A DNA stretch of 40,933 nucleotides from positions 1 through 40,933 of the IMG/VR virus record IMGVR_UViG_2563366852_000006. The stretch is one strand, 5' to 3'. The notes under the pieces are model-generated. The model saw nothing but the letters and a program-made list of their open reading frames with translations, made no database searches and had not been told where the DNA came from. The position numbers and the translations under genes are program-made. This DNA comes from a virus (taxonomy: Duplodnaviria; Heunggongvirae; Uroviricota; Caudoviricetes). Below are positions 386-34,230 of this stretch, piece by piece. The stretch's first letter is position 1. The number at the start of each line of letters is the position of its first letter.

Positions 386-1609
386 ATGGCGCTGTCTGAT
401 GCGTGGTTGCGTTCAGTCGTTGGAAAGGAACGTGATAAGGTTTTGGTTAAATCCGATCGTGATGGTCTGTCTGTCAGAGTATCACCGAAAGGTCGCGTAG
501 TGTTCCAATATCGTTATCAATGGGCAGGGAAAGGTGAGCGTCTTGATATCGGAACTTACCCAGCAACTGGATTAAAAGAGGCCAGAGAAGAAGTTATCCG
601 TCTCCGTGGTGAACTCGAGTCAAACCGTAATCCACGATTGGTCAAGCAGGCTGAAAAACGAAAAGCTACTGAAGCCATGACGGTAGAGTCTGTGATCCGT
701 GCCTGGTATGAAGCATATTGTGTAAAAAATAAAAAAGGCTCTGAACAGATACTCCGCTCGTTTGAGCTGCACCTGTTCTCTAAAATCGGGAATATCCCTC
801 ACGATGCAGCTACATTGCATGATTGGTTAGAAGTCCTGGAGCCTCTTAGCACTAAGACTCCAGCAATAGCAGACCGATTGCTAATTAACGCAAAGCAGGC
901 CCATGTCTGGGCGTATAAGAGAAAGCTCATTGAAACTCGCCCGCTGTCGGATATCACGGGTAAAGATATGGATATCCGTAAAGGTCAGAAGAAACGGTTT
1001 CTGACACATGATGAAATTAAAATCCTTTATGCTGCGATCGATGGTTCTCGAATGGTTCCTAAATACCGGGCCTTCATTAAACTATTGCTGCATTTTGGCT
1101 GCCGTAGTTCAGAGCTAATTACCGCCAGGGTGGACGATTTTGATTTCATTAATAAAGTATGGACTGTACCACCAGAACGACATAAGACTGGGGAGATAAC
1201 GGGCGAACCGCTAAAGCGGCCCATTATTGAACCGGTTGAAGAGCTTATAAAGTACGCTATTTCTATGAACAATGGTTCCGATATGCTTTTTACTAAGGAA
1301 GGAAGCAGGGAACCCGTTGGTCGGACATCATTGCAGTCGCTGCCTTACAATTTAATGCAGTATGCATGGCGGCGTTTGGGGTATCAATTCCCTCATTGGT
1401 CTCTGCATGATTTGAGGCGAACAGCACGAACAAACTTTTCTGATCTTACTGCGCCTCATATCGCAGAAATAATGCTCGGTCATAAACTGCCGGGGGTATG
1501 GCAAGTTTATGACAAGAGTGATTATTTAGAAGAACAGCGTAAAGCCTACCAGGCATGGTGGGAGAGAGTTGAATCGATTGTTACTTGTTCTGGTTCAGAC
1601 ACCAACTGA
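386..1609 (+). CDS. int: Tyrosine recombinase (phage integrase)
   Basis: 407 aa ORF with an N-terminal arm-binding-type region and a C-terminal catalytic region containing HDLRRTARTN and a downstream Tyr (VYDKSDYL); sits at the prophage edge next to an AT-rich putative att region. Confidence 0.85.
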   Translation: MALSDAWLRSVVGKERDKVLVKSDRDGLSVRVSPKGRVVFQYRYQWAGKGERLDIGTYPATGLKEAREEVIRLRGELESNRNPRLVKQAEKRKATEAMTVESVIRAWYEAYCVKNKKGSEQILRSFELHLFSKIGNIPHDAATLHDWLEVLEPLSTKTPAIADRLLINAKQAHVWAYKRKLIETRPLSDITGKDMDIRKGQKKRFLTHDEIKILYAAIDGSRMVPKYRAFIKLLLHFGCRSSELITARVDDFDFINKVWTVPPERHKTGEITGEPLKRPIIEPVEELIKYAISMNNGSDMLFTKEGSREPVGRTSLQSLPYNLMQYAWRRLGYQFPHWSLHDLRRTARTNFSDLTAPHIAEIMLGHKLPGVWQVYDKSDYLEEQRKAYQAWWERVESIVTCSGSDTN

Positions 1610-1781
1610 CAGTTTGCATATTTTGAACGCAATAAAATATGACAGTCCGCTTTGAGCGAGGAGCGGATATATGATGTTTAGAAAACGCGCGATTTGCAGT
1701 TAAGCAATCTAAGTTACTGATGTACTATACTGGAACTGCTGGCCAGTTTGTGTTGAACACCATCATTATCACAATAAGGAA

Positions 1782-3035
1782 ATGAAAGTTGAAATGAATA
1801 CTAAACTTTTGGCCTATTTAAACAATGAGTTACATGGAGTGTGGGTAGATAGTGAAAATCGTAATATCCACATAATACTTAAATCAAGCCTTCCTATAAT
1901 TAAATCCGTCTGGTCAGGAGCACCTATCCACTTTTTGGTAGGTTTATCTACTAAAAATATACTAGTGATTGGGATGTTGATTGAAGATAATGTCGATAAT
2001 CCATTTTTACTAGCCTATCCACCAAGAGAGGCAGATGAAATTAAAGGGCTGGATTTGTTATTGTCAGGCGCTTATGATGGTATTCTATTATCATTTTTTG
2101 ACTCGCATACAATGCGTGTTATGGACCTGAAAATAAAAGTTTCGGAAAATTTACCGTGTGAATGTTTAAAAAAATTTTGTGCTAATTCATATTCTCTCAA
2201 TTCAGGATTTAGGGAAGGTAATGAAGCAATGGATGAATTCTGCAACAATGCTTTGACTGGTAACGAGAAAATAATTAGTCTGCCACTAAGTGTAATCGAT
2301 AAAAAATCTTACCTAGCAAGTGTTCATGAACCAAACGATACCGTATTAACATATGAATTTAGCGTCAGTGAAAACGGCTCTGAGGGATATGAGCAGGAAG
2401 CTCTTATATACCATGCTTTGCGGCAGGTCTTTTCAACGGAGGAAGTGTTTTTTTCTCCAGATATTATTGAGGGTAATAAAAAAAGAGAACTAGTTGATAT
2501 TCTTATTGTAGAAAATGACTATGTATTATCTATACAGTCTAAAGCATCATCTTTGATTGAAATGGGTTTGAAATCTCATGAAAAGCTTTGTAGCATGTAT
2601 AAGAAAAAAGCATTGCAAGGGATCGATCAGGTTAAAGGCGTTATCCCAATTCTAAATAATGATGTGGTTATTAATTATGACGGGAGGGAATGCTTAATAA
2701 AGCGCAGAAAGGGTATTTATCATTTAGTGATAATCTCAGATCTTGTTTTAGAGAAAGAAGGTGCTGAAAAGATTTATAACGAAATTAGCAACCTTAAAGA
2801 GTCAAAAGGGGCGAAAGTTTTAGTTATGAGCCTTGAAGGTCTTGTAAATTTTATAAGACTATCAAGATTAAATAAAAGAATGTTTTGGGCAATGCTGGAG
2901 GCTAAATACAAGTTCAGCATAAAAAACCGTACAATTTTAATTAGAGATATCGACTCTAGCCAAGAGAATAATCTACCATTACTTGCCACTGATCAATACC
3001 TATCACTTCTTCGAGGTACGGGAAAATTAAAATAA
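1782..3035 (+). CDS. Hypothetical protein, AT-rich cargo gene between integrase and the early operon terminator
   Basis: 417 aa uninterrupted ORF, visibly AT-rich compared with flanking phage genes. RBS AAGGA lies just before the 1782 ATG; an alternative ATG is at 1794. No family recognised by eye; a possible E...PD...QxK-like stretch (EQEAL...SPDIIEG...VLSIQSK) is unverified. Confidence 0.6.
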   Translation: MKVEMNTKLLAYLNNELHGVWVDSENRNIHIILKSSLPIIKSVWSGAPIHFLVGLSTKNILVIGMLIEDNVDNPFLLAYPPREADEIKGLDLLLSGAYDGILLSFFDSHTMRVMDLKIKVSENLPCECLKKFCANSYSLNSGFREGNEAMDEFCNNALTGNEKIISLPLSVIDKKSYLASVHEPNDTVLTYEFSVSENGSEGYEQEALIYHALRQVFSTEEVFFSPDIIEGNKKRELVDILIVENDYVLSIQSKASSLIEMGLKSHEKLCSMYKKKALQGIDQVKGVIPILNNDVVINYDGRECLIKRRKGIYHLVIISDLVLEKEGAEKIYNEISNLKESKGAKVLVMSLEGLVNFIRLSRLNKRMFWAMLEAKYKFSIKNRTILIRDIDSSQENNLPLLATDQYLSLLRGTGKLK

Positions 3036-17498: not shown

Positions 17499-17932
17499 GC
17501 AGAGTCACCGCGATTATCTCCGCTCTGATTATCTGCATCATCGTCTGCCTGTCATGGGCTGTTAATCATTACCGTGATAACGCCATCGCCTACAAAGAGC
17601 AGCGCGATAAAGCCACATCCATCATCGCTGACATGCAGAAGCGTCAACGTGATGTAGCAGAACTCGACGCCAGATATACAAAGGAGCTTGCTGATGCTAA
17701 CGCGACTATCGAAAGTCTCCGTGCTGATGTTTCTGCTGGGCGTAAGCGCCTGCAAGTCGCCGCCACCTGTGCAAAGTCAACGACCGGAGCCAGCAGCATG
17801 GGCGATGGAGAAAGCCCAGGACTTACAGCAGATGCTGAACTCAATTATTACCGTCTCCGAAGTGGAATCGACAGGATAACCGCGCAGGTTAACTACCTGC
17901 AGGAGTACATCAGGACGCAATGCCTTCGATGA
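17495..17932 (+). CDS. Rz: Spanin inner-membrane subunit Rz
   Basis: N-terminal TM helix then a coiled-coil-like periplasmic domain; overlaps the R stop. Confidence 0.85.
17688..17879 (+). CDS. Rz1: Spanin outer-membrane lipoprotein Rz1, embedded in Rz in another frame
   Basis: 63 aa ORF wholly inside Rz; lipobox LLGVSAC then a Pro-rich segment. Confidence 0.75.
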
Positions 17933-18182
17933 TAGCGATAATTTTACTCATCATCCTTCACATCTGGCTCTGTAGACAGGGTGGTGCTTACTTCTGGAGC
18001 GAATCCAGATTAAACATCTCATTGCTGATGCTTGATATTGAGCATCTGGCGCGCGGTAAGGGCTGTGTTGAGATAAGTGCCAGTTCATTACAAAGCTATA
18101 TCTAATGGAACCTGAAATAATTTGTCATTGTCATGACAAGAAAATTCATTAATGATGAGCTCTCATTATACGGGAGGTAGAT

Positions 18183-18431
18183 ATGGCATTTCGTTATTTT
18201 GAACTTACCGAAAATATTCCTTTTGAGGATGCAAGAGAGCTTCACGTACAGTTCAAACACCACTTAGAATATGTTGTAAAGGCGTTATTTATGCCAGGAA
18301 CACATGAAAAGCATTTAATTGTTGAAGGCCGGGATGACGAATCGATAACACAGATATTTGGTGGGCATGATGAAAAGTTTATGCATCTTTATCATATCGA
18401 TGAATATGAAAAACGTGAAGACTTAATCTAA
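18183..18431 (+). CDS. Hypothetical small acidic protein
   Basis: 82 aa, AT-rich, GGGAGG RBS 6 nt upstream; Asp/Glu/His-rich. Confidence 0.45.
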   Translation: MAFRYFELTENIPFEDARELHVQFKHHLEYVVKALFMPGTHEKHLIVEGRDDESITQIFGGHDEKFMHLYHIDEYEKREDLI

Positions 18432-18546
18432 CCTCCTACGACTGTTTTTATTGCCATCATAAAAGCCATTCCTTGCAGAGTGGCTTTGATAATGGATATC
18501 CCAACAAGCGGATAAGACAATAAATATACCCACCAGGGGATAAACA

Positions 18547-18792
18547 ATGTCTAAAATCACGGTTACACCTGCATAGCAGATCCGCTTAAACCTGCTGGCG
18601 AAACTGTACTATGACACCGCCGCTGCAGCAGACGCGATTAAGTTTGTTGGTGACGATCCGTTGAAGTATCAAATCTTTGTGAACCAGTTAAGCTGGGTAA
18701 CATCTGAAAGCGGGCTGGTAGCCAGAACGACGAAAGCTATCAAAGAGTCGGAAGACACACTACTGTGGTTTGAAGCTGAATCTGGTTCATAA
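18547..18792 (+). pseudogene. Small ORF interrupted by one in-frame TAG at codon 10
   Basis: ATG at 18547 after an AGGGGA RBS; TAG at 18574-18576; the same frame then stays open for 71 more codons to TAA at 18790-18792. Confidence 0.4.
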
Positions 18793-18840
18793 GTGAATGA
18801 ATGTGGTAATTTAATCCTCCGCAAAAAAAAGGGGATAAAA

Positions 18841-19062
18841 ATGCCAAAGAATGTCATAGCTATTTTACCGGGTGACGCGTTTGATCATGTTGTTGTCCAG
18901 GACGACCTGGAGATTGTTACCTTCAGGGGTGACAAGGGCGGCGTGCTTACTATGCCTATCGAGGAGTACGAACTAGACGGGATAAGTTATAACGTCGCAC
19001 GTTGTGACGGTATGGTCACTGACGAAAAAGTTGAGAAGGCTATCAGACACTTCACCAAGTAA
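18841..19062 (+). CDS. Hypothetical small acidic protein
   Basis: Start chosen at MPKNVIAIL after AAAGGGGATAAAA; followed by a terminator. Confidence 0.4.
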   Translation: MPKNVIAILPGDAFDHVVVQDDLEIVTFRGDKGGVLTMPIEEYELDGISYNVARCDGMVTDEKVEKAIRHFTK

Positions 19063-19080
19063 TAATCAGCTTCCGAACCA

Positions 19081-19104
19081 AGCCTCGCAATAGCGAGGCT
19101 TTTT
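19081..19104 (+). terminator. Rho-independent terminator
   Basis: AAGCCTCGC-AATAG-CGAGGCTT followed by TTTT. Confidence 0.6.
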
Positions 19105-19116
19105 AACGACAGAGGT

Positions 19117-19311
19117 ATGACAGTGGTTCTTACAGCTAAGCAGTTTGAAGACCTTGCATCCTTCGCGAAGGAAGATAGCCAGCCTCAATACACCATCGCA
19201 ACCGGAATAATCCCAGAATTCGAAGATGATTGTGAGTTTATCCCCGTTTATGCCGGGCTCATCGCTTATTTAGAGTTACTGAATCACGGTGTATTGCAAC
19301 TCGACCACTAG
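19117..19311 (+). CDS. Hypothetical small acidic protein
   Basis: 64 aa ORF, D/E-rich; weak translation signals. Confidence 0.3.
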   Translation: MTVVLTAKQFEDLASFAKEDSQPQYTIATGIIPEFEDDCEFIPVYAGLIAYLELLNHGVLQLDH

Positions 19312-19385
19312 CGACATTACGCCAAGTATTCATCAAGTGCCTAGTTTAATGTTAAATTATTCCCTCATTCATAAAAGGGAATGTT

Positions 19386-19787
19386 ATGAAAATAGATCAC
19401 GAGTATTTGAAAGGTCTTTTGGAAGCTTTCGAGGCGTCTGAAGAGCCGCATACTGATATAAAGCAGCTGCAGCTGGCTGGGTATGACTACAGCACCGATG
19501 AATTTTTATTCCATATGCGTTTATTGGCTGATCGTCAACTAATTGCTAGAACAGACGGCAAGTATGGGTTTGGTTTCTCTGAGGCTGCTGATGGAGGATC
19601 ATGGTTCGTTATACCGTTACGATTAACTTCAAGCGGTCATGACTTCCTTGAAGCTCTCAGGAATAAAGAGGTTTGGAATTCTCTCAAGACCGGCTTTAAA
19701 GATGCAAGCATTGGAACATTAGTTGACGTTTCAAGGCGTTTGCTGGATGGTTATATTCAGAAAAAAATTGACGACTTAATTGGCTAA
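19386..19787 (+). CDS. Hypothetical protein, possibly DUF2513-like winged-helix
   Basis: 133 aa; N-terminus MKIDHEYLKGLLEAFE resembles DUF2513 proteins from memory; followed by a strong terminator. Confidence 0.45.
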   Translation: MKIDHEYLKGLLEAFEASEEPHTDIKQLQLAGYDYSTDEFLFHMRLLADRQLIARTDGKYGFGFSEAADGGSWFVIPLRLTSSGHDFLEALRNKEVWNSLKTGFKDASIGTLVDVSRRLLDGYIQKKIDDLIG

Positions 19788-19813
19788 TATTTTATATAAC
19801 CATCAGCCCCGCA

Positions 19814-19838
19814 ATCGCGGGGCTTTTTTATTGCCATT
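19814..19838 (+). terminator. Rho-independent terminator
   Basis: AGCCCCGC-AATC-GCGGGGCT followed by TTTTTT. Confidence 0.65.
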
Positions 19839-19921
19839 ATGATGGCAGATACATTGCTATGGCGTAACAGGATTTCAACTATGAACCCAACAGAAGCAGC
19901 TACATCACCGAAGGACGGATA

Positions 19922-20272
19922 ATGCCACCACGCACACCAAAAGCCTGCCGTGTTCGCGGGTGCCGCCATACCACCACTGACCCGTCAGGTTATTGCGAAA
20001 GCCACAAAAGCGAAGGCTGGAAGCAATACAAGCCAGGACAATCCCGTCATCAGCGCGGCTACGGTTCGAAGTGGGACGTTATCCGCACGCGTGTGCTGAA
20101 ACGTGACAAAGGTTTATGCCAGTTGTGCCTGCGTGCTGGTGTGGTGCGCGAGGCGAAAACCGTTGACCACATCATCCCTAAAGCGCATGGCGGCACTGAT
20201 GCCGACTGTAATCTGCAGAGTCTGTGCTGGCCGTGTCATAAGGCGAAGACGGCCCGTGAACGGTTGAAGTGA
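19922..20272 (+). CDS. HNH endonuclease (packaging-associated)
   Basis: Cys-rich N-terminus and HNH core (VDHIIPKAHGGTDADCNLQSLCWPCHKAK); located just upstream of the terminase small subunit, as in HK97-type phages. Confidence 0.85.
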   Translation: MPPRTPKACRVRGCRHTTTDPSGYCESHKSEGWKQYKPGQSRHQRGYGSKWDVIRTRVLKRDKGLCQLCLRAGVVREAKTVDHIIPKAHGGTDADCNLQSLCWPCHKAKTARERLK

Positions 20273-20388: not shown

Positions 20389-20892
20389 GTGCCGCATATG
20401 GCTGGAACGGCGGGGCGTTCCGGGCGTCGCCCCAAGCCAACGGCGCGCAAGGCGCTGGCCGGAAACCCCGGCAAGCGAGCCCTGAACAAAGATGAACCTG
20501 TTTTTACGCCCATCAAAGGTGTTGAGCCACCGGAGTGGTTCGCTGAAGAAGATCTCCCTCTCGCCACGATCATGTGGCAACTGACAACCAAAGAACTCTG
20601 CGGTCAGGACCTGCTGTGCGTGACTGACCTCGCGGTGCTTGAGCGGTGGTGCGTGGCCTACGAGTTCTGGCGACGTGCCGTGAAAAATATTGCCATACAG
20701 GGCAACACCATCACCGGTGCAATGGGCGGCAGGGTCAAAAATCCGGAGCTGACCGCCAAAAAAGAACAGGAGTCCGAGATGAGCAGCACGGGGGCAATGC
20801 TCGGACTCGACCCCAGCAGCCGCCAGCGTCTGATTGGCCTGGCGGGGCAGAAGAAAGCCACTAACCCGTTTCTGAAAATCATCGAGTCATGA
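20389..20892 (+). CDS. Terminase small subunit (P27 family)
   Basis: N-terminal basic region [24 protein letters not shown]; immediately upstream of and overlapping the large subunit. Alternative start at 20398. Confidence 0.8.
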
Positions 20893-22622
20893 GCCGGAAA
20901 TCTTACCCCAACGTAAATGCTGCCAATCAGTATGCCCGTGATGTCGTGCGCGGAAAGATTGTGGCCTGCCAGTTTGTGATTCAGGCCTGCCAGCGCCATC
21001 TTGATGACCTGATGGCGGAAAAAAGTAAGTCGTTTCGTTACCGCTTCGACAAGGACCTGGCTGAACGGGCCGCGAAATTTATTCAGCTGTTGCCACACAC
21101 CAAGGGGGAGTGGGCATTCAAGAGGATGCCCATCACGCTGGAACCGTGGCAGCTCTTTGTGATCTGCTGTGCGTTTGGCTGGGTCAATAAAGGCTCCCGG
21201 CTGCGCCGCTTCAGGGAGGTGTATACCGAAATCCCCCGTAAGAACGGCAAATCGGCAATCTCTGCCGGTGTTGCCCTGTATTGTTTTGCCTGTGATAACG
21301 AGTTTGGCGCAGAAGTGTATTCCGGTGCCACGACAGAGAAACAGGCGTGGGAAGTCTTTCGCCCGGCTCGACTGATGTGTAAACGCACACCCATGCTGAC
21401 GGAAGCGTTCGGGATTGAGGTTAACGCCTCAAACATGAATCGTCCGGAGGATGGCGCGCGGTTTGAACCGCTGATCGGTAACCCCGGTGATGGTTCATCA
21501 CCCCACTGTGCGGTGGTGGATGAATATCACGAGCACGCCACAGATGCGCTTTACACCACGATGCTTACCGGGATGGGGGCGCGACGTCAGCCACTGATGT
21601 GGGCCATTACTACTGCCGGGTACAACATTGAGGGGCCGTGCTACGACAAGCGGCGGGAAGTTATCGAGATGCTCAACGGGTCGGTACCCAACGATGAACT
21701 GTTCGGGATCATCTATACCGTTGATGAAGGTGACGACTGGACCGACCCGCAGGTGCTGGAAAAAGCTAACCCGAATATTGGCGTGTCGGTTTATCGCGAA
21801 TTTTTGTTAAGTCAGCAGCAGCGTGCGAAAAATAACGCCCGTCTGGCAAACGTCTTTAAAACAAAGCACCTCAATATCTGGGTGTCGGCGCGTTCGGCGT
21901 ATTTCAACCTGGTGAGCTGGCAGAGCTGCGAGGATAAATCACTGTCCCTTGAGCAGTTCGAGGGGCAACCGTGCATCCTGGCCTTTGACCTGGCGCGTAA
22001 GCTGGATATGAACAGTATGGCGCGACTTTATACCCGCGAGATTGACGGTAAAACGCATTACTACAGTGTGGCCCCGCGTTTCTGGGTACCGTATGACACG
22101 GTGTACAGCGTCGAGAAAAATGAAGATCGCCGGACAGCCGAACGCTTTCAGAAATGGGTGGAAATGGGCGTCCTGACCGTTACCGATGGTGCAGAGGTGG
22201 ATTATCGCTACATCCTCGAAGAGGCCAAAGCGGCGAACAAAATCAGCCCGGTCAGCGAGTCACCCATCGACCCCTTCGGGGCGACCGGGCTGTCACATGA
22301 CCTTGCTGATGAAGACCTGAATCCCGTCACTATCTTCCAGAACTTCACCAATATGTCCGATCCGATGAAAGAGCTGGAAGCAGCGATTGAATCGGGACGT
22401 TTTCATCATGACGGCAATCCCATCATGACCTGGTGTATCGGCAACGTGGTCGGCAAAAACATGCCGGGTAACGATGATGTGGTGAAACCCGTCAAAGAGC
22501 AGGCGGAAAACAAAATTGACGGTGCAGTTGCGCTGATTATGGCGGTTGGCAGAGCCATGCTGTACGAGAAAGAAGACACGCTGTCTGATCACATTGAGTC
22601 CTACGGGATCCGCTCGCTTTAA
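20889..22622 (+). CDS. Terminase large subunit
   Basis: 577 aa; ATPase-like N-terminal half and nuclease-like C-terminal half with conserved acidic residues; position between the small subunit and the portal. Confidence 0.9.
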
Positions 22623-30353: not shown

Positions 30354-32247
30354 TAATTTTCAGCTGAAAGCCATCATCACCGCCGTTGACAGGCTATCCG
30401 GCCCGCTTAAAGGTATGCAGCGTCAGCTTAAGGGGTTTCAGAAAGAAGTCTCCAGCCTTGCTCTGGGCGCTGCCGGGGCGGGTACTGCAATAATGGGGGC
30501 ACTGGCACTCCCTGTAAAATCAGCCATCACCCTTGAATCGAAGATGGCTGATGTCCGCAAAGTGGTGGACGGTCTGGATACGCCGGATGCGTTTAAGGCC
30601 ATGACGGAGCAGGTACGCGCTTTGTCTACTGAGCTTCCCATGTCTGCAGACGGGATCGCGGAAATTGTGGCGGCTGGCGGTCAGGCCGGGATTGCACGTG
30701 ATGAACTGATGCAGTTTGCCACTGATGCGGTGAAGATGGGCGTGGCCTTTGATACCACGGCTGAAGAGTCCGGGCAGATGATGGCCCAGTGGCGTACTGC
30801 GTTTAATATGACGCAGGATGAAGTGGCCGGGCTGGCTGACAAAATCAACTACCTTGGTAATACCGGCCCGGCGAATGCGAAGAAAATCTCCGATATTGTT
30901 ACGCGTATTGGTCCTTTAGGTGGTGTTGCAGGTGTGGCTTCCGGCGAAATCGCGGCAATGGGGGCAACCATTGCCGGGATGGGCGTGGAGTCAGAAATTG
31001 CCGCCACAGGGATCAAGAACTTCATGCTTTCCCTGACCGCGGGAAATTCCGCGACAAAATCGCAGAAACAGGCATTACGTTTTCTGCGGATCAATCCGAA
31101 GAAATTAGCTGCTGATATGCAGAAAGATGCCCGGGGAACCATGCTGTCTGTACTGGATGCGATGGCTAAAGTGCCTAAAGAAAAACAGGCAGCTGTGCTG
31201 AATGCCCTGTTCGGGAAAGAGTCTCTGGGCGCGATAGCACCTCTGCTGACTAACCTTGATTTGTTGCGTACCAACTTCAGGCGGGTTGCGGATTCCCAGC
31301 AGTATGGCAGTTCGATGCAGAAGGAATATGCTTCGAGGGCAGCGACGACGGAAAACCAGCTTTTACTTCTGCAAAATCAACTTGATGCAATTTCTTCCAC
31401 TCTGGGGGAAACGTTTCTTCCTGAGGTTAATGATGGTCTTGAAGCGGTAAAACCGCTCCTTGAGGAAGTGAGAACGTTTGTCCGTGAAAACCCGGAGCTC
31501 GTTAAGACCATTGCTAAAATCGGTCTGGCTTTACTGACAGTGGGGGCCGCTGCAGGCTCTTTGTCCAGAATCATGAAAGTTCTCGGCGGTGTGATGAATA
31601 TGACGCCTGCTAAGGGGCTGATTGCTCTTCTGGTTGGTGGCGCTTACCTCATTATTGATAATTGGGAAACCGTAGGTCCTGTCATAAAAAAAGTCTGGCA
31701 CGTGGTGGATGAAACGGCGCAGGTGATGGGGGGATGGGAAACTGTTCTGAAAGCGATTGCCCTGTTTATGGCAACCAAATGGGTTGCTGACGTTACCAAA
31801 TCTATTACCGCAGTGACCAGAGAGATGCGTACGCTGGGGAAGGTATCGGCAGAAACGGGATTGATGGGGAAAGGCCGCGGCTTTATCGGGAAGGCCGGGG
31901 TATATGATTTTCTGGGAACCCTGATGTATGAGCCGGTTAAAGATACTCTGGAAAGTGTTGTTCCTGAAGATACGGTTAACTGGCTGGATAATAAAGGGCT
32001 GTTTCTGGCTTCAGACTGGACGCCTTTTTTTGATCGTAAAGAGTACGAGCAGTATCAGGCCAACCTGAGTCAGTACAAACCCAATGTTCCGCTGTTGAAT
32101 CCATCTTCTTCCATGACACAGCACAGCGAGCTGAAAGTCACGTTCGAGAATGCTCCGCCAAGTATGAAGATAATTGATGTACCGGGCAAAGCCGATCCCC
32201 TGATGAAAATCACGCACGATGTGGGGTATTCTCCATTCAGACGATAA
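30346..32247 (+). CDS. Tail tape measure protein
   Basis: 633 aa, Ala/Gly-rich and helical, with C-terminal hydrophobic segments; canonical position. Confidence 0.85.
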   Translation: MADNFQLKAIITAVDRLSGPLKGMQRQLKGFQKEVSSLALGAAGAGTAIMGALALPVKSAITLESKMADVRKVVDGLDTPDAFKAMTEQVRALSTELPMSADGIAEIVAAGGQAGIARDELMQFATDAVKMGVAFDTTAEESGQMMAQWRTAFNMTQDEVAGLADKINYLGNTGPANAKKISDIVTRIGPLGGVAGVASGEIAAMGATIAGMGVESEIAATGIKNFMLSLTAGNSATKSQKQALRFLRINPKKLAADMQKDARGTMLSVLDAMAKVPKEKQAAVLNALFGKESLGAIAPLLTNLDLLRTNFRRVADSQQYGSSMQKEYASRAATTENQLLLLQNQLDAISSTLGETFLPEVNDGLEAVKPLLEEVRTFVRENPELVKTIAKIGLALLTVGAAAGSLSRIMKVLGGVMNMTPAKGLIALLVGGAYLIIDNWETVGPVIKKVWHVVDETAQVMGGWETVLKAIALFMATKWVADVTKSITAVTREMRTLGKVSAETGLMGKGRGFIGKAGVYDFLGTLMYEPVKDTLESVVPEDTVNWLDNKGLFLASDWTPFFDRKEYEQYQANLSQYKPNVPLLNPSSSMTQHSELKVTFENAPPSMKIIDVPGKADPLMKITHDVGYSPFRR

Positions 32248-32311
32248 TATAACTACTTTAATCAAGTAGGATTATTGAGTGGTAAAGCTTGTGCTGAAAG
32301 TAGGAGAGAAT

Positions 32312-32800
32312 ATGAAGAAAATGTTTATATTGTTGTTGGCTGTAGGACTGCCATTAAACTCCTTTGCGAAGCCAGTAACGGAAAAGCAGCTTGCTACATA
32401 CTTTATAGATAACGTTAAAACTTCAGCGGATAAGAATATAGATCTAGATGTAGAGGGAATAAATAGACTGTCTGTAATATGCCCAGCAAAGTCGGCAAGT
32501 GGAACTCTTTTAATAAAAAAAGCATCCTACGAGTTTAATAAAAGCATTGGTGCTTTTGATTTTGAAAATAACTCACAATCTGCACCATTGACTTTTATTG
32601 TACCAATTAGTGAGGATGAAAATAACTTTGACTCGGAAATTATTGGTTTCTCTTTTGCATTTAAAATGCCAAGAGGGCAATTCTTTGTTGATGTTACGAA
32701 AACAGGGAAGGTAAAGGCTGGCGTAAATATTAGTGGTGAAAGCGAAATTACTTATTCATCATGTAGAATAGATACTCATAATATTGATTATGCTCGTTAA
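32312..32800 (+). CDS. Secreted or lipoprotein-like cargo protein inside the tail module
   Basis: AT-rich; signal peptide MKKMFILLLAVGLPLNSFA; own terminator downstream; inserted between tape-measure and DNA-circularisation genes. Start chosen at MKKMF (32312). Confidence 0.6.
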   Translation: MKKMFILLLAVGLPLNSFAKPVTEKQLATYFIDNVKTSADKNIDLDVEGINRLSVICPAKSASGTLLIKKASYEFNKSIGAFDFENNSQSAPLTFIVPISEDENNFDSEIIGFSFAFKMPRGQFFVDVTKTGKVKAGVNISGESEITYSSCRIDTHNIDYAR

Positions 32801-32815
32801 TTTTATTACCTAATA

Positions 32816-32845
32816 AAAAAACGCGTTTACACGCGGTTTTTATTT
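32816..32845 (+). terminator. Rho-independent terminator after the cargo gene
   Basis: CGCGT-TTAC-ACGCG stem-loop followed by GTTTTTATTT. Confidence 0.55.
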
Positions 32846-32856
32846 GAGGTGACGCC

Positions 32857-34230
32857 ATGGATTTTTCTCATATTTCTTCGTACCTATCCTCTGATTCTCG
32901 AAGTGGCTGGCGTGAAAAGCTACTTGAAGCATCATTTCGAGGTGTGCCGTTTAAGGTTGAAGAAGAAAGTGCGGGAACCGGTCGCCGTGTGGAAACACAT
33001 GAATACCCGAACCGCGACAAGCCCTATACCGAAGATCTGGGAAAAGTCACTTTCCGCCCGTCCATCACAGCTTATGTGGTGGGAGATGACTGCTTTGACC
33101 AGCGCGATCGCCTGATTGAAGCGCTGAATAAACCCGGTCCCGGCACGCTTGTCCACCCGACATATGGTGAGCTGAAAGTCTGTGTTGACGGGGAAGTTCG
33201 GGTCAGCACATCGAAAAGTGAAGGGCGTATTGTCCGCTTTGACCTGAAGTTTGTCGAAGCAGGAGAACTCTCTTACCCCACATCAGGTGCGGCGACGGCG
33301 CAGACGCTGATGTCATCCTGTTCTGCACTGGATGACTGCATCAGTGACAGCTTCAGCGGTTTCAGTATCGATGGTGTGGCGGATTTCGTGCAGAACGACG
33401 TTATCGGTAATGCCAGCATAATGCTGGGGTATGTTTCTGATGCGATGAAAGTGGTGGATTCTGCCGTATCGGATGCCGCCAGGCTGTTGCAGGGGGATAT
33501 CTCGGTACTTCTGCCGCCGCCATCGTCAGGCAAAAATTTCGTTGAGCAGGTGCAGAAAATGTGGCGTACCGGGAAACGCCTTTATGGTAACGCCAGCGAC
33601 CTGGTCACCATGATCAAAACGCTTTCCGGTGTCAGCCTCGGCAGCGATCTGCAACCGCGCGGCGTCTGGAAAACGGACAGTAAAACCACCGCCACGGCGA
33701 CGCAGCAGCGTAACGTGGTTGCCAGCACCCTTCGTACGACCGCAATCAGCGAAGCGGCGTATACCGTCACCCGATTGCCTGCGCCAACAACTTCCGCGGT
33801 GATGCAGAATTCCGCAGTGGGGCAGGCAACAACACCCGCGCAGAGCACTGGCTGGCCTTCCGTCACGCATCCGGCACTGAACAATGCACCGGCGGTGAAA
33901 AACACGGTTGACCTGCCGACGTGGGAAGAACTGACTGACATTCGCGACACACTGAATACGGCAATTGATAAGGAGTTGTCCCGTACAACCAGCGATGCGC
34001 TGTTTCTGGCGCTGCGCCGGGTGAAAGCAGATCTGAATGCGGATATCAACACGCGCCTTGAACAGTCTGCACGGATCATTCAGCGCACACCGGATGAGGT
34101 TTTACCCGCGCTGGTGCTGGCGGCGACCTGGTTTGATAACGCGGCGCGTGACGCGGACATTATCCGGCGTAATGCCATTACGCATCCCGGCTTTGTGCCG
34201 GTGATCCCTCTGAAGGTGCCAGTGCAATGA
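32857..34230 (+). CDS. DNA circularisation protein (Mu N-like)
   Basis: N-terminal pattern EASFRGVPF ... GRRVETHEYPNRDKPYTEDLG typical of the family. Confidence 0.8.
   Translation: MDFSHISSYLSSDSRSGWREKLLEASFRGVPFKVEEESAGTGRRVETHEYPNRDKPYTEDLGKVTFRPSITAYVVGDDCFDQRDRLIEALNKPGPGTLVHPTYGELKVCVDGEVRVSTSKSEGRIVRFDLKFVEAGELSYPTSGAATAQTLMSSCSALDDCISDSFSGFSIDGVADFVQNDVIGNASIMLGYVSDAMKVVDSAVSDAARLLQGDISVLLPPPSSGKNFVEQVQKMWRTGKRLYGNASDLVTMIKTLSGVSLGSDLQPRGVWKTDSKTTATATQQRNVVASTLRTTAISEAAYTVTRLPAPTTSAVMQNSAVGQATTPAQSTGWPSVTHPALNNAPAVKNTVDLPTWEELTDIRDTLNTAIDKELSRTTSDALFLALRRVKADLNADINTRLEQSARIIQRTPDEVLPALVLAATWFDNAARDADIIRRNAITHPGFVPVIPLKVPVQ

Follow-up and report, generated by a model that had tools for sequence, protein, structure and literature searches.

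What kind of DNA fills the gap between the lysis and the packaging genes of a temperate phage, and what holds it in place? The question is raised by the virus record IMGVR_UViG_2563366852_000006, a lambdoid prophage of Escherichia coli of the SfV/HK97 type, which was analysed over its whole length of 40.9 kb (the window; all positions are given in its numbering). Between positions 18183 and 19787 it carries a cluster of five small open reading frames (ORFs), here called A to E in their order. An initial annotation had described them as AT-rich, mostly acidic cargo, each with its own terminator, and had suspected DNA-mimic anti-restriction or other anti-defence proteins. From the comparison with about 150 related loci, we consider the region to be probably a tandem array of exchangeable accessory modules, inserted at a unit of terminator and hairpin downstream of the lysis genes. 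The hairpin is a 43-nt element that recurs in the corresponding gap of many enterobacterial phages.

Mosaic modules behind the lysis genes

The cluster lies, as initially annotated, between the lysis genes (end of Rz at 17932) and the packaging side (HNH gene from 19922), and its four small ORFs of 82, 73, 64 and 133 aa as well as one ORF interrupted by an amber codon were recovered at unchanged coordinates. The GC content of the ORFs is 0.35-0.47, whereas the lysis and terminase genes on either side reach 0.51-0.58, so the AT-richness is genuine. At 99% identity the whole 2.4-kb stretch is present in only six of 5,426 complete E. coli genomes; both of its ends, the end of Rz and HNH, are found in thousands of them. 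In the minimal relative L109, the lysis genes are followed by an ORF similar to o61, a terminator, a second hairpin and HNH, the two ORFs lying about 220 bp apart. The cluster thus sits between genes that are adjacent in L109, and single modules are present in L003 and L108. The ORF o61 itself, the first gene past the spanin genes and overlapping the end of Rz, was absent from the initial list of ORFs. Because the minimal relatives L108 and L109 have a 50-aa form of it, we assign o61 to the backbone and not to the cargo.

In other phages the ORFs of the window are separate or recombined. In E. coli S1, o61 and A are located before a P22-type terminase, and P22-like E. coli prophages have A by itself at this place. 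D, E and HNH directly follow Rz1 in other E. coli strains. Kluyvera, mEp390 and N15 have D on its own, and the combinations D-B, B-E and B-HNH were detected in Klebsiella phages. Together with L109, which lacks the cluster, these arrangements strongly support the earlier idea of a cargo site. Judged from gene order, four modules are independently exchangeable: o61 with A, B with C, D with E, and E inside the last as a unit of its own.

The block edge after A consists of a terminator T-run and a second hairpin (18445-18497), the edge before D of the terminator hairpin alone (19081-19104) and the edge after E of a terminator and a short palindrome (19805-19848). By sequence comparison, the module edges coincide with copies, some complete and others decayed or partial, of a single backbone terminator and a single 43-nt element. 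A terminator for each ORF, as initially proposed, was not found; there are two canonical ones for the five ORFs, after C and after E. The first was confirmed at its position with a stem and U-tract as listed in Table 1. It forms the left edge of the module of D and E, for which megablast places the boundary at 19083, and the same sequence is present in L003. The second, at the right edge of this module, exists as well; its position had been given as 19814-19838, about 9 nt off the actual one (19805-19830). Since the segments 19081-19104 and 19805-19828 are 88% identical and carry compensating changes in the stem, both terminators are copies of one backbone post-lysis terminator.

A covarying hairpin at the junctions

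The element, which the initial annotation had missed, surfaced upstream of E, where the 95 nt before the start of DUF2513 genes (the family of E) are conserved across loci with differing upstream genes. Its consensus is rGCAUUAC-AG-[10-nt arm]-loop-[arm']-yGA-UAAUGCy, in which a conserved 7-bp base with the arms GCATTAC/GATAATGC is separated by a 2x2 internal loop from a 10-bp top that varies. The sequence of the base stem and of this loop is kept, and the upper stem varies with full compensation. The hexamer GATAAT is invariant in the 3' arm; -35 and TG positions are not conserved. As there is no U-tract after the stem, the element is not a typical terminator.

The seed alignment consisted of 18 sequences which were picked with a filter on folding energy. 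Here, 96.4% of the cells pair and compensatory changes on both sides are observed in 10 of the 17 pairs, compared to just 31-53% pairing in slid controls with the partners shifted by 1-3 columns. Such a filter favours pairing, and an independent set was therefore collected from IMG/VR with a pattern fixing the base stem only. This search delivered at least 120 stretches, 80 of which contained 102 covariance-model matches with 91 distinct sequences. Among these listed matches the share of paired cells is 95.8%, compensatory changes affect 11 of 17 pairs, and there are 41 different upper arms. Wobble pairs (G.U and U.G) are common, as with 68 of 91 at one position. The folding energy is -24.7 kcal/mol for the sense strand and -17.4 for its complement, and 45 of the 47 matches found in DUF2513 loci have the orientation of the gene. 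The frequent G.U pairs, the fold of the sense strand and the bias to the gene strand argue for a structure of the sense strand, most simply RNA. The sequences thus describe an element that is strand-specific and strongly covarying.

With Rfam 15 and a threshold relaxed to E<=1, nothing overlapped the element, either in the window or in six loci whose copies score highly; the remaining Rfam matches were sub-threshold, driven by the terminator, and were discarded. A likeness of the arms to XerCD/dif sites was also dropped, since they read CATTA/TAATG and not CATAA/TTATG, which we take to be the dif arms, and the spacer measures about 27 nt. The element is a covarying structure without an Rfam entry, and no description of it was found in the literature searched.

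In the window, the copy at 18452-18497 is intact and the sole significant covariance-model match. It is directly preceded by a T-run remnant of the backbone terminator (18445-18451) and consists of a 10-bp upper stem, AAAGCCAUUC/GAGUGGCUUU, on a base stem, CCAUCAU/GAUAAUGG, that contains a single mismatch. Its fold z-score is -3.0. One of its stem pairs is C-G, U-A or U.G across L109, L108 and the window. The second copy, between D and E, is decayed: it retains an intact base stem, ACAUUA/UAAUGU, but its upper stem is degraded. At this position, upstream of DUF2513, relatives have a perfect copy in more than 20 loci.

Two short palindromes at module junctions (18122-18139 and 19831-19848) share the pattern TTGYCAT-N4-ATGRCAA with matching T/C and A/G changes, and neither gave a significant covariance-model match. 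They may represent operators or collapsed base stems of the hairpin element. The one behind the second terminator occupies the place of the hairpin element in minimal relatives, as seen in comparison with L109 (...CTTTTTATTGTCATTACAAAAGCC...GATAATGG), and may be the collapsed base stem of such an element. In the case of the other, which overlaps the -35 hexamer of a promoter-like site before A, the segment 18122-18156 would be a promoter together with its operator, or else a junction element that has collapsed.

In the compared loci there is typically no gap between the stop codon of the preceding ORF and the element (modal gap 0), and from its end it is a median of 32 nt to the start codon of the following gene. 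A locus has one to three copies, most often spaced by 311-312 nt, and 145 copies were counted in these loci. Among the matches listed, the upstream ORFs fall into 86 clusters, including DUF2560, the D family, A, spanins, GnsAB and KilA-N. At least 10 genes with an Acb2/Tad1-hairpin domain (PF24729, E 2e-18) are located directly before the element in IMG/VR loci. In an Enterobacter hormaechei prophage (L102/L103, 3341-3625), such a gene directly follows the spanin gene and shares the gap with a homologue of D. Genes for Acb2/Tad1 cyclic-nucleotide sponges thus take the post-lysis slot in related prophages and are followed by the same element. However, no protein of the window matches PF24729 and the link is positional only.

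The element spans temperate phages of E. coli, Klebsiella and Pectobacterium. L112 contains three copies (823-865, 1436-1477 and 1746-1788) and mEp390 one (L233, 36401-36443), with none in the remainder of the complete mEp390 genome. The commonest variant is located directly after rha in phi80 (L236, 2001-2040) and after gp36 in Pectobacterium phage ZF40. A perfect copy is also present in the common laboratory E. coli strains DH5alpha, NEB 5-alpha (H75) and DH10B (H78), presumably derived from the remnant of phi80 lacZ that they carry. From all non-phage loci examined the element is absent.

The closest described concept is that of the PeSL cassettes in T4-type phages. According to Arbiol et al. 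2010 (PMC2839356), a short conserved intergenic stem-loop motif flanks non-essential ORFans in a hyperplastic region, and recombination between its copies leads to the shuffling of modules. Our element is likewise a conserved stem-loop flanking variable ORFs. In contrast to PeSL, it belongs to temperate lambdoid-type phages, is bipartite with 43 nt, and has neither a U-tract nor a conserved -35 or TG. Integron cassettes, composed of an ORF and attC, also resemble the arrangement: an imperfect inverted repeat comes immediately after a small ORF without a promoter, its outer arms are conserved in sequence and its centre in structure only, and one strand is favoured. However, the element is shorter than attC, the core sites GTTRRRY/RYYYAAC are absent, the comparison gave no evidence for site-specific excision, and no integron integrase was found among the neighbour genes examined. 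This resemblance is architectural only.

Table 1. Coordinates of the genes and sequence features discussed, in window numbering
Feature	Position	Strand	Remarks
Holin, lambda family	16692-17018		Lysis gene
Lysozyme, GH24	17022-17498		Lysis gene
Rz spanin with Rz1 embedded	17495-17932		Lysis gene
o61, 61 aa	17920-18105	+	Hydrophobic N-terminus; phrog_11822, E 2e-34; like Sf6 gene 65
Perfect palindrome TTGTCATtgtcATGACAA	18122-18139	+	Overlaps -35 of the promoter-like site of A; conserved in L108
Sigma-70-like site TTGTCA-17-AATGAT	18128-18156	+	Upstream of A; scores 9/12
ORF A, 82 aa	18183-18431	+	phrog_35226, E 3e-56
Intact element copy	18452-18497	+	R1 covariance model 32.1 bits, E 1.3e-6
ORF B, DUF2560 (PF10834), interrupted	18547-18792	+	phrog_571
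ORF C, 73 aa	18841-19062	+	Own GGGG ribosome-binding site
Terminator 1, AGCCUCGC-aaua-GCGAGGCU + U5	19081-19104	+	9-bp stem; fold z-score -4.3
ORF D, 64 aa	19117-19311	+	phrog_9518, E 3e-34
Decayed element copy, between D and E	19312-19354	+	R1 covariance model 13.1 bits, E 0.25
Small hairpin UUCCCU...AGGGAA	19358-19383	+	Pairs the ribosome-binding site of E; -7.9 kcal/mol, z-score -2.5
ORF E, 133 aa, DUF2513 (PF10711)	19386-19787	+	Predicted winged helix-turn-helix, then three C-terminal helices
Terminator 2, AGCCCCGC-aauc-GCGGGGCU + U6	19805-19830	+	Fold z-score -4.5
Palindrome TTGCCATtatgATGGCA	19831-19848	+	Directly after terminator 2
HNH endonuclease	19922-20272		Packaging side
Small terminase TerS, P27-type	20389-20892		Packaging
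Large terminase TerL	20889-22622		Packaging

The proteins of the array

The description of the products as mostly acidic applies to four of the five, with isoelectric points (pI) of 4.05-5.2 and net charges of -6 to -9. In the order A to E, the pI values are 5.2, 4.9, 4.6, 4.05 and 5.1 and the net charges -9, -2, -6, -9 and -6, which places them at the acidic end of the distribution for small conserved ORFs in related loci. The content of acidic residues across the cluster is moderate (12-22%). In Pfam, NCBIfam, PADLOC and PHROGs, none of the five was assigned to a family known for anti-restriction, anti-defence, defence, lysis or structural roles; PADLOC and NCBIfam gave zero matches for every ORF, and searches of PDB sequences with A, C, D and E delivered nothing credible. 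Clear homology to structural or lysis proteins, which the initial annotation had named as evidence against its own proposal, did not appear in the family searches.

A, C and D represent narrow families of enterobacterial phages. For A, 11 homologue clusters with 64-94% identity were found, all in Enterobacterales, without a match in Pfam or in 50,697 phage records. C has 12 representative clusters of 72-74 aa that align end to end; no Pfam, PHROG, NCBIfam or PADLOC family and no match in the phage records was obtained. Its likeness to two proteins with PPC-domain repeats (881 and 975 aa) was discarded as a chance match inflated by repeats. D, the most acidic protein of the cluster, has 13 homologue clusters. 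The family includes N15 gp56, mEp390 gp53 and homologues in Klebsiella phages, and its gene is usually the first past the spanins.

B is recognised as a DUF2560 protein if the amber codon is read as Gln (PF10834, 55.2 bits with a gathering cut-off of 25). The TAG at 18574-18576 is codon 10, at which intact homologues of 81 aa have Glu or Gln, and it is common to all six near-identical copies. An intact frame of about 80 aa is not available, as the next start codon leaves just 43 aa, and B is probably a pseudogene in this lineage. C shares the frame of B and only a TAA at 18790-18792 divides them, which had been missed. In E. coli strain 2c3 (L002, 2238-2663) this TAA is lost, and PGAP annotates the fusion of B and C as a 'DUF2560 family protein' of 141 aa. 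The literature searched mentions DUF2560 merely in passing. The ratios of nonsynonymous to synonymous substitutions (dN/dS) are 0.09-0.14 for D, 0.02 for E and 0.16 for the B family. These three are under purifying selection, and such values mark them as real genes.

In line with the initial annotation, A, C and D could be DNA-mimic proteins directed against restriction or CRISPR, of the type of Ocr, ArdA or AcrIIA4: they are small and acidic, have neither membrane segments nor enzyme domains, are narrowly distributed with a fast turnover, and a known anti-defence family takes the same slot in relatives. We nevertheless regard this as quite unlikely. No anti-restriction or anti-CRISPR (Acr) family in Pfam, NCBIfam or PHROG and no relative in PDB was matched by the three proteins, and their acidic content (17-22%) is moderate. 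The AlphaFold2 model of D is alpha+beta and of low confidence (predicted local distance difference test, pLDDT, 58), hence not interpretable, and that of E suggests a winged helix and no mimic. The late gene order behind terminators is ill-suited to blocking restriction at DNA entry and argues against a classic early anti-restriction function. For the broader claim of anti-defence there is support by association, since relatives have Acb2/Tad1 genes in this slot, bounded by the same element; A to E themselves match no anti-defence or defence family in the databases named above.

E is the best defined of the proteins. It matches PF10711 over residues 2-108 of 133 with 50.8 bits (gathering cut-off 29.6), and the domain is carried by all 129 homologues. 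The AlphaFold2 model, based on an alignment of 40 sequences, reaches a pLDDT of 96.5 with a winged helix-turn-helix followed by three helices; according to this model, E is a winged-helix protein. The model superposes on the winged-helix domains of MarR, TubR, HxlR and PadR, and a fold search in BFVD returned only generic winged-helix and phage YjcQ-like models. In contrast to the MarR and PadR proteins, E has a distinct three-helix extension at the C-terminus and an acidic pI; it has no match to a MarR or PadR family in Pfam, and none in PDB by sequence or by the 40-sequence profile. Neither DUF2513/PF10711 nor the RefSeq protein accessions are mentioned in the literature searched. Directly before the gene, a small hairpin pairs with the ribosome-binding site, and an equivalent is present in 21 of 23 distinct 5' untranslated regions of DUF2513 genes with CCCY/RGGG variants (L011-L049). 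This conservation suggests that the translation of E is controlled.

In about 35 phage loci E is located just before the terminase genes, of at least three types, and in phage Chlobot it belongs to the early-left region. It is also widespread outside phages, standing on its own in genomes from many phyla, among them Acidobacteria, Nitrospirota and Alphaproteobacteria. No partner family recurs among 45 same-strand neighbours of these non-phage homologues; a conserved operon partner was therefore rejected, the neighbours being mostly housekeeping or unique genes.

At this point we want to note a few non-phage loci in which the gene adjoins restriction systems. In Thiothrix nivea (L035, 2773-7731) and in L063 (2602-7076), two unrelated bacteria, the DUF2513 gene follows a type IIG restriction-modification enzyme of 1,065-1,075 aa at a distance of 13-130 nt, with more uncharacterised ORFs downstream, and in L097 it adjoins a type I HsdR gene. 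A link of DUF2513 to restriction systems is possible on the basis of these neighbourhoods.

The predicted fold of E, shared with MarR/PadR-type regulators, also raises the question of whether E is a regulator like the anti-CRISPR-associated (Aca) proteins, controlling the variable small gene or genes before it, and marks an anti-defence operon by its helix-turn-helix. E is the conserved last cargo gene in the phage loci mentioned. The small ORF immediately before it varies, being D in 10 loci and DUF2560 in 7, among others. A conserved inverted repeat with the GATAAT hexamer is found about 35 nt before the start of E. We consider this unlikely. The same repeat occurs without E in L102, L104, L105, L109, L110, L112 and phi80, and its upper stem compensates and uses G.U pairs, which points to RNA rather than to an operator; as an E-specific operator it was rejected on both grounds. 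Moreover, the window's own copy upstream of E is decayed. An acr-aca operon was not recognised: E matches no Aca, MarR or PadR family by sequence, and there is no room for a promoter before D.

The positions of D and E could also be those of accessory factors, for lysis in the case of D, whose homologues come immediately behind the spanin gene in N15, mEp390, Kluyvera and E. coli prophages, and for cos cleavage or packaging in the case of E, a presumed DNA-binding protein beside HNH and TerS that in most phage loci stands ahead of the terminase genes. This is very improbable. The close relative L109 lacks the whole cluster and keeps the same lysis and packaging genes, and D has no membrane or signal features. 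As a packaging factor E was rejected because it accompanies at least three unrelated terminase types and is found in the early region of Chlobot as well as outside phages.

Expression and likely role

The sigma-70-like site upstream of A is the only one in the cluster, and three promoter-like sites were counted in total compared to a mean of 4.8 in shuffled sequence. D starts 12 nt past the first terminator, which leaves no room for a promoter, and is most likely read from the antiterminated late transcript only. Gene order and terminator positions indicate that the genes of the cluster are probably read mainly by a Q-antiterminated late transcript.

Extra genes of this kind are known from lambdoid phages as morons, a concept of Hendrix and Juhala, with lambda bor and HK97 gp15 as examples. 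The cluster shares with morons that AT-rich, mosaic and presumably non-essential genes, bounded by terminators, are inserted between genes that are neighbours in relatives. It differs in that most ORFs have no recognisable promoter of their own and several stand in tandem, and in that the junctions are copies of one unit of terminator and hairpin instead of unrelated signals. If the genes were morons expressed in the lysogen, for superinfection exclusion, abortive infection or an altered host physiology, the AT-rich inserts between terminators would be their classic signature and the promoter-like site with palindrome before A would be in place; GnsAB and KilA-N genes occur in the same slot of relatives, and some non-phage homologues of E stand beside type IIG or type I restriction enzymes. 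We judge this to be improbable as well, in view of zero PADLOC matches, a single weak promoter-like site with a site count below that of shuffled sequence, the location of D and E directly behind a terminator, and the lack of a recurrent partner among the 45 neighbours of non-phage E homologues.

The reading that we prefer, a tandem array of exchangeable modules, would involve the following steps. Modules would be inserted by recombination at the terminator-plus-hairpin unit downstream of the lysis genes and transcribed mainly within the Q-antiterminated late transcript, only A having a promoter-like site. The element would act in the sense-strand RNA, as a processing site or a 3' stabilising structure, and its conserved base may double as a homology patch for the exchange of cassettes. 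The proteins would be non-essential cargo acting on the host late in infection, with counter-defence as the most likely theme, and E would bind nucleic acid, or a partner protein, via its winged helix.

Several points weigh against this proposal. With one intact copy of the element in the window, the picture of cassettes is drawn mainly from relatives, and the seed alignment from which the covariation was first derived had been selected in favour of pairing. Late transcription is deduced from gene order and terminator positions alone. For A to E, homology pointed to no function, and the occurrence of E as a lone gene beside housekeeping genes fits a general cellular role better than a counter-defence function in phages. 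That the proteins interfere with the host or its defence at a late stage is a tentative suggestion, made by analogy with the Acb2/Tad1 genes in whose company they are found and from their being small, soluble and fast in turnover.

Apart from the cluster, three further AT-rich regions were observed in the window. An island on the minus strand (14792-16406, GC 0.31-0.36) between the Q region and the holin gene contains two leftward ORFs of 194 and 340 aa. The two leftward genes at this place in near-identical E. coli prophages are labelled 'nucleoid-associated protein' and 'hypothetical protein' by PGAP. This island is probably another moron, possibly a pair of defence genes. Two patches look like additional cargo: positions 1500-3000 (GC 0.33-0.37) with an ORF at 1782-3035 beside an integrase-like ORF (386-1609), and positions 32000-33000 (GC 0.36-0.42) with an ORF at 32279-32800 inside the tail region.

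Taken alone, the five ORFs are ordinary hypothetical phage cargo, a cluster of morons. For DUF2513, a widespread family for which no literature was found, a confident predicted fold and a defined genomic niche are now available. It is conceivable, though we would not call it likely, that the gap in many enterobacterial temperate phages (phi80, mEp390, Klebsiella prophages) is in general a cassette array in which each small accessory gene, Acb2/Tad1 genes included, carries the element at its stop codon, with the element as an RNA processing or stabilising structure and recombination joint and with A to E, DUF2513 above all, as late counter-defence cassettes. If the element is an RNA-processing element or a recombination joint, this would explain the shuffling at this hotspot. 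The element would then become a sequence handle for harvesting late-expressed accessory genes of these phages, some of which are known counter-defence proteins.

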